Shown here one piece after another: positions 47,760 through 47,850 of a stretch of 64,000 nt of DNA. Position numbers and translations under genes: made by a program. The notes under the pieces are model-generated. The model saw only the letters and a list, made by a program, of their open reading frames with translations, was not told the origin of the DNA and did no database searches. This stretch comes from Escherichia coli (GTDB taxonomy: Bacteria; Pseudomonadota; Gammaproteobacteria; Enterobacterales; Enterobacteriaceae): assembly GCF_013122565.1 (NCBI RefSeq), contig NZ_CP053258.1. The stretch is one strand, 5' to 3'. Each line of letters begins with the position of its first letter. The first letter of the stretch is position 1.

Positions 47760-47850
47760 CGCCGTTCTCAACGGGGTGCCACGCGGACGCGTGCGCTGAG
47801 AAAATACCCGTCGAACCTGATCCGGATAACGCCGGCGAAGGGATTTGAGG
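47760..47850 (+). promoter_or_regulatory. TPP riboswitch (THI element) in the thiBPQ leader
   Basis: Conserved thi-box elements read directly: ggggtgcc ... gctgagaaaataccc ... gaacctgatccggataacgccggcgaaggga, upstream of the thiB start. Boundaries approximate. Confidence 0.8.

Follow-up and report, generated by a model that had tools for sequence, protein, structure and literature searches.

E. coli has three textbook TPP riboswitches, of which the thiB riboswitch is one; the thiM riboswitch serves as the reference for the structure and mechanism of translational TPP switches. The two belong to the same Rfam family, share the thi-box core, and occlude the SD upon TPP binding (PMC10578472). 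They differ in the operon under control, which is a kinase operon for thiM and a transporter operon for thiB, and also in the sequences of P3 and of the expression platform. Rho-dependent termination was reported for thiM, whereas bicyclomycin had no effect on thiB (PMC10578472), yet an effect at the mRNA level was found for thiB (PMC11487190). In E. coli K-12, translational and transcriptional fusions of thiB were both repressed by TPP, and this control was lost in the aptamer mutant G35C (PMC11487190, PMC10578472). Mutation or weakening of the sequestering stem also abolished TPP control (PMC10578472). Strengthening of P1 or of the antisequestering stem biased the switch to ON or OFF, and the antisequestering stem was required (PMC11487190, PMC10578472). 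The thiB riboswitch is therefore an already known element, which has been experimentally dissected and is annotated by PGAP in matching genomes.

The locus compared here lies in a stretch of 64,000 nucleotides of E. coli DNA (contig NZ_CP053258.1), which is called the window below. The region is the leu-sgrRS-thiBPQ-ara part of an E. coli/Shigella-type chromosome, and its features around thiB are collected in Table 1. Directly 3' of thiQ and before yabI/araC is an IS110-like element of the IS621 family (about 51.2-52.5 kb), with a transposase ORF of 326 aa at 51375-52355 on the + strand; an IS621 is found at the same position in some E. coli genomes. Further Rfam matches above the gathering score in the window include the leucine operon leader (38107-38256, +), PssrA ('plasmid-encoded Shigella sRNA A', 16518-16607, -), STnc40 (10802-10871, -) and the REP-derived naRNA4 (10304-10381, -).

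Table 1. Features of the sgrR-thiBPQ region in window coordinates.
Feature	Position	Strand	Evidence and remarks
SgrS	44236-44462	-	Rfam match above gathering score; farther upstream of sgrR
sgrR	44530..46188	+	ORF; Pfam SgrR_N and SBP_bac_5; annotated in matching E. coli records
Inserted islet, 1544 bp, 41.5% GC	46183..47726	.	Separates the final sense codon of sgrR from the thiB -35 hexamer
Islet gene, full-length espY2 allele, 278 aa	46684..47520	-	Divergent from thiB; Pfam Pentapeptide, E 7e-21
thiB -35-like hexamer TTGCTG	47729..47734	+	Inferred from the -10 and start site; 3/6 consensus; identical to K-12
thiB -10 hexamer TACACT	47752..47757	+	7 nt 5' of the SroA 5' end; position conserved in relatives
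TPP riboswitch aptamer	47762..47861	+	RF00059, 65.8 bits, E 1e-10; helix conservation
Equivalent of K-12 sroA (b4762), stable leader RNA of ~93 nt	47764..47856	+	K-12 annotation
Aptamer helices	P1 47767-71/47845-49; P2; P3 47778-47796; P4/P5 47816-47841	+	
Anti-P1 / antisequestering stem, ON state, AAGGGAUUUGAGG with UCUCAAGUCCUUU	47838..47868	+	MFE fold; conservation
Sequestering stem, OFF state	47865..47892	+	Both predicted folds; SD GAGG at 47882-47885
thiB (tbpA), periplasmic thiamine/TPP-binding protein, GTG start	47892..48875	+	ORF; Pfam SBP_bac_1/6/11; matching records
thiP, ABC transporter permease, 536 aa, intact	48851..50461	+	ORF; BPD_transp_1; matching records
thiQ, ABC transporter ATPase, intact	50445..51143	+	ORF; ABC_tran on the 232-aa product in L004/L005

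The initial annotation had placed a TPP riboswitch upstream of thiBPQ at 47760-47850, with thi-box elements that could be read directly in the thiB leader. A scan of the whole window against the 4227 families of Rfam 15 (cmscan) confirmed it. The family RF00059 matched with 65.8 bits, where the gathering score is 54.3 (E 1.1e-10), and the proposed coordinates fall on this match (Table 1). The alignment spans the full model (positions 1-105 of 105), and the match is the only TPP match in the 64 kb. The conserved ligand-sensing core is present, with the pyrimidine-sensor CUGAGA at 47796-47801 and the pyrophosphate-sensor pattern ACCUGAUC.GG.UAA.GCC.GCG, which is present as ACCUGAUCCGGAUAACGCCGGCG at 47815-47837. 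All of the modelled aptamer pairs in the window are standard. The GTG start of thiB lies 31 nt 3' of the aptamer end, the SD GAGG is part of a conserved hairpin, and the alternative anti-P1 stem is also conserved.

Relatives of the leader were retrieved with the exact 42-nt thi-box pattern, which gave 63 Enterobacteriaceae species representatives with an identical 42-nt core, including E. albertii, E. whittamii, Citrobacter, Klebsiella, Enterobacter, Kosakonia, Raoultella and Leclercia. The gene sgrR was located 5' of the thi-box in 57 of the 57 loci with enough flanking sequence, and thiB followed 3' wherever the downstream flank sufficed. A -10 hexamer of the form TA(C/G)A(A/C)T was found 8-10 nt 5' of the P1 strand in 63/63 loci (L006-L068). 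In the 60 nt upstream of P1 of these 63 loci, the stop codon of sgrR directly adjoins a -35-like CTTTC/ATTGCT motif in most loci and genera. Thus, the end of sgrR and the thiB promoter are tightly packed, and this arrangement is conserved.

The helices were tested in an alignment of 27 distinct leaders with a short P3, from more than 15 genera. Under the OFF model (aptamer plus sequestering stem) 98.3% of the pair cells were standard, and under the ON model 95.6%, as compared with 29-55% for slid partners. Considered stem by stem in these 27 species, 97% of the cells were paired in the sequestering stem and 92% in the anti-P1 stem. Two-sided (compensatory) changes occurred only in P3 (3 pairs), and P1, P2, P4, P5 and the expression platform were invariant in the 27 leaders; the leaders had been chosen by the exact 42-nt core, so that this invariance is partly by construction and the covariation support is confined to P3. 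These data also bear on the reading that the match is a chance similarity or a decayed thi-box without function, which has a negligible probability. The E value of 1e-10 holds across the window for all families scanned, the 42-nt core is identical between sgrR and thiB in the 63 species representatives, and the downstream thiBPQ operon is intact. The element is almost certainly the canonical Escherichia thiB (tbpA) TPP riboswitch, also known as the leader RNA SroA, and the islet next to it a separate derived insertion that disrupts neither the core promoter and leader nor the sgrR frame. No feature of the sequence speaks against this reading.

In several species of Klebsiella, Raoultella and Citrobacter, an ERIC element (enterobacterial repetitive intergenic consensus) is nested in the P3 of the thiB riboswitch. 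Full ERIC elements are present in seven loci (L064 from K. pneumoniae ATCC 13883, L024, L026, L052, L036, L067 and L030), and apparent remnants of 40-97 nt are present in L044, L047, L022, L045, L057, L032, L060, L027, L038 and L025. The ERIC-bearing P3 is about 135-138 nt long and contains GTGAATCCCC.GGAGC...GTGACTGGGGTGA; the P3 of R. ornithinolytica has two tandem ERIC copies and a length of 263 nt. In the MFE folds of leaders with ERIC, the helices P1, P2, P4 and P5 are retained, and the ERIC element forms a long P3 hairpin. The Rfam scan at the gathering score returned no TPP match in 7/7 full-ERIC loci, though their 42-nt thi-box is identical, and therefore the ERIC-bearing thiB riboswitches are likely under-annotated. 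A literature search for ERIC, riboswitch and thiamine in combination found nothing.

Alignment of the window with K-12 MG1655 (75300-75800) revealed only one mismatch between 47727 (-37) and the thiB start codon, which is G in the window and T in K-12 at position 47786 in the P3 loop. Apart from that base, the window and K-12 share the location between sgrR and thiB, a core promoter and start site, aptamer and anti-P1 linker, and the sequestering hairpin with SD and GUG; upstream of -37 the window has the islet where K-12 has the 3' end of sgrR. In a second islet-free E. coli strain the sole difference from the window is at 47785, again in the P3 loop. This loop is thus polymorphic at 47785-47786, with GGAC in the window and in all four islet-bearing loci examined, GUAC in K-12, and AGAC in the other islet-free strain. 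The polymorphism is probably neutral, because it falls in the loop of P3, which is the most variable part of the aptamer among the species compared.

The K-12 sroA (b4762, 75608..75516) was mapped onto the window by alignment, and the thiB +1 was set at G 47764, the 5' end of SroA, by transfer from the K-12 annotation together with comparative conservation. This choice reproduces the published numbering, with G35 in CUGAGA, G121 in the SD GAGG and U130 in the GUG (PMC11487190). The construct of PMC10578472 appears to begin about 2 nt earlier, since its nucleotides 95-99 pair with 85-89. The annotation of the K-12 leader as 'small RNA SroA' (b4762), with coordinates that correspond exactly to 47764-47856, would also fit a different reading, in which the main product is a stable RNA of ~93 nt that acts in trans as a small regulatory RNA and the cis control of thiB is secondary. 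Such a role is very improbable, as the published work fully explains thiB control in cis via SD sequestration (PMC11487190, PMC10578472), and the 3' end of SroA is inside the expression platform, as expected of a decay or processing product of the repressed leader.

The spacer between TTGCTG and TACACT is 17 bp, and the core promoter from -35 to +1 is, like the whole leader, as in K-12 (apart from the one P3-loop base). A generic promoter and terminator scan of 46100-48000 missed the thiB promoter, since TTGCTG agrees with the -35 consensus at just 3/6 positions, too weak a match for the threshold; the same scan of this interval gave no + strand terminator after sgrR. Judged from its hexamers, the predicted thiB promoter is of a weak sigma-70 type, consistent with the low native expression in PMC11487190.

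For the canonical riboswitch, the following sequence of events is proposed. Transcription from the weak sigma-70 promoter would begin at G 47764, and the nascent leader would fold into the TPP aptamer. Binding of TPP would stabilise P1 (CUCAA with UUGAG), and in the bound state the hairpin CUUUGC(C)ACU / GGU-GCAAAG would hide the SD GAGG beside the GUG. Occlusion of the SD would lower the translation of thiB and, secondarily, the level of the thiBPQ mRNA. Without TPP, the linker CUCAAGUCCUUU would invade P1 at its 3' strand, and the anti-P1 (antisequestering) stem would result. This stem would also take the 5' half of the sequestering hairpin, leaving the ribosome-binding site free. The unconstrained MFE structure of the window leader (ViennaRNA) has the anti-P1 hairpin, i.e. 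the upper part of the stem; when P1 was enforced, the SD hairpin was still present. TPP binding and thiB repression are assigned to the window because of the K-12 experiments (PMC11487190, PMC10578472) and of the identity save one P3-loop base. The riboswitch should function as in K-12, since core promoter, leader and sgrR frame all survived the islet insertion intact; its ligand response and mechanism are taken from those published experiments.

The initial annotation had also described an inserted islet immediately upstream of the riboswitch, which is indeed present. Pairwise BLAST against the islet-free strain L003 placed the breakpoints at 46182/47727, and K-12 (L069) is islet-free as well. 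The GC content of the islet is 41.5%, versus 55.6% for sgrR and 56.2% for thiBPQ. Its right edge (47726) corresponds to -38, counted from the start site at 47764; it lies 2 bp 5' of the -35 hexamer and leaves 37 bases upstream of the transcription start. At the left junction, the islet gives CCA GAG TAG in place of the CCA TGA of K-12, and SgrR consequently ends in ...PPDPE, with 552 rather than 551 aa. The nearest complete E. coli genomes are 97.5-98.5% identical to the window over the islet and over 51100-58000.

The sole convincing gene of the islet is espY2, and the 495 bp that separate the stop codons of sgrR and espY2 (34-45% GC) have no convincing ORF. A terminator-like hairpin with a T-rich tail is located at 46397-46370 on the - strand, about 290 nt 3' of the espY2 stop. 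The 278-aa EspY2 has an N-terminal WEX5F motif (WETLRNLF) and C-terminal pentapeptide repeats similar to those of PipB/PipB2. Its NCBIfam matches were below the cutoff only, to PipB2 (41 bits versus a cutoff of 354) and also to PipB; the short espY2 allele had zero matches in NCBIfam, which has no model that catches EspY2. The WEX5F motif and the sub-cutoff PipB2/PipB matches are indirect signs of type III secretion or translocation, and the islet gene is a T3SS effector candidate.

The islet is the already known espY2 locus, as ECs0073 of O157 Sakai is espY2 (PMC2241611), and the short allele is annotated by PGAP as 'T3SS effector EspY2' (O157 protein WP_000868321). The gene in the window is orthologous to it, with the same locus and junctions, an N-terminal part close to WP_000868321, and DNA that is ~93% identical over 46970-47998. 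The window and O157:H7 (Sakai) share the insertion site, both junctions, the N-terminal ~150 codons and the orientation divergent from thiB. They differ in length, since the O157:H7 allele encodes 189 aa (L002 1918-2487), lacks a counterpart of window positions 46308-46969, and misses most of the pentapeptide repeats; whereas the window allele encodes 278 aa. From this comparison, the O157:H7 EspY2 seems to derive by C-terminal truncation from the 278-aa protein with its PipB/PipB2-like pentapeptide-repeat domain. Four contigs on record encode the identical 278-aa protein. In E. coli 33F4 (L001 2186-3022), PGAP splits the long allele into a 'partial' pseudogene and a 97-aa pentapeptide protein despite an open frame of 278 codons, and this split looks like an annotation artefact.

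The same junction and islet occur in 1046 of the 5426 complete E. coli genomes (~19%), and the long form is present in 207; the remaining islet-bearing genomes have mostly the short espY2 form, as far as the sampled rows go. The junction is the same in E. coli with the long allele and with the short allele. No islet was found in the 57 other Enterobacteriaceae species representatives in which sgrR was located. In these 57 species the thi-box lies 66-343 nt from sgrR, versus 1611 nt in the window, and the longer distances among the relatives are due to insertions within P3, not upstream of the promoter. The occurrence in 1046 of 5426 E. coli genomes and the absence from the 57 other species therefore point to a derived insertion in the E. 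coli/Shigella lineage, which on this distribution is taken to be old and common.

Whether the islet affects thiBPQ was raised in the initial annotation, according to which the divergent effector-like gene and the thiBPQ promoter share a short AT-rich region, with possible read-through or H-NS-type silencing. The geometry stands, as the two are divergent, with 243 bp of 41% GC from the espY2 ATG to the thiB start site; the sequence does not imply the consequences suggested. Read-through of the islet gene into thiB was rejected, because espY2, encoded on the other strand, is oriented away from thiB. The only co-directional gene upstream is sgrR, which the islet separates from thiB.

An influence other than read-through of the islet gene could still be considered, in which thiBPQ transcription is measurably altered by the islet next to a canonical riboswitch. 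The islet edge is only 2 bp from the -35 hexamer, and the DNA upstream of the promoter is wholly different between islet-plus and islet-free alleles. All DNA upstream of -37 is replaced, from GC-rich sgrR coding sequence to AT-rich sequence that has a T6AATA tract around -60 to -51, and the islet has 41.5% GC against ~56% in its flanks. It also brings in a divergent, horizontally acquired gene, which nucleoid proteins such as H-NS may coat. Such an effect is nevertheless unlikely. The -35, the spacer, the -10, the start site and the leader are as in K-12 (one P3-loop base aside), and the K-12 thiB promoter itself is not TPP-regulated, the control being in the leader (PMC11487190). Moreover, the junction is old and common, and its presence in 1046 genomes with both long and short espY2 alleles indicates that it is at least tolerated.

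A loss of sgrR read-through was considered as a further consequence. The islet moves sgrR and thiB 1.5 kb apart, with a convergent gene in this interval, and would abolish any read-through from sgrR into the leader. In K-12 and in the 57 species, sgrR ends a few bases from the -35 with no space for a terminator, and a computed sgrR-sroA-thiBPQ unit is listed in databases (PMC8743547). However, the thiQ mRNA of K-12 did not follow a 6.5-fold rise of the sgrR mRNA, and this published qPCR argues that such read-through is minor (PMC8743547); its loss is therefore unlikely to matter much.

The preferred reading remains a canonical thiB riboswitch beside a separate insertion. What the comparison adds is little beyond a correct annotation and a precise map, with the islet edge at -38, the core promoter and leader untouched, and sgrR extended by one codon. 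As the espY2 islet ends just 2 bp from the -35 hexamer, a rewired thiBPQ promoter in the islet-bearing E. coli/Shigella lineages is conceivable, through a UP-like AT-rich tract, the spread of H-NS or a virulence regulator from the divergent effector gene, or the loss of any sgrR read-through, though this is slightly less probable still than a measurable effect in general. If it were true, thiamine uptake in these lineages would either settle at another level or be regulated jointly with the effector, and the riboswitch itself would be unchanged.
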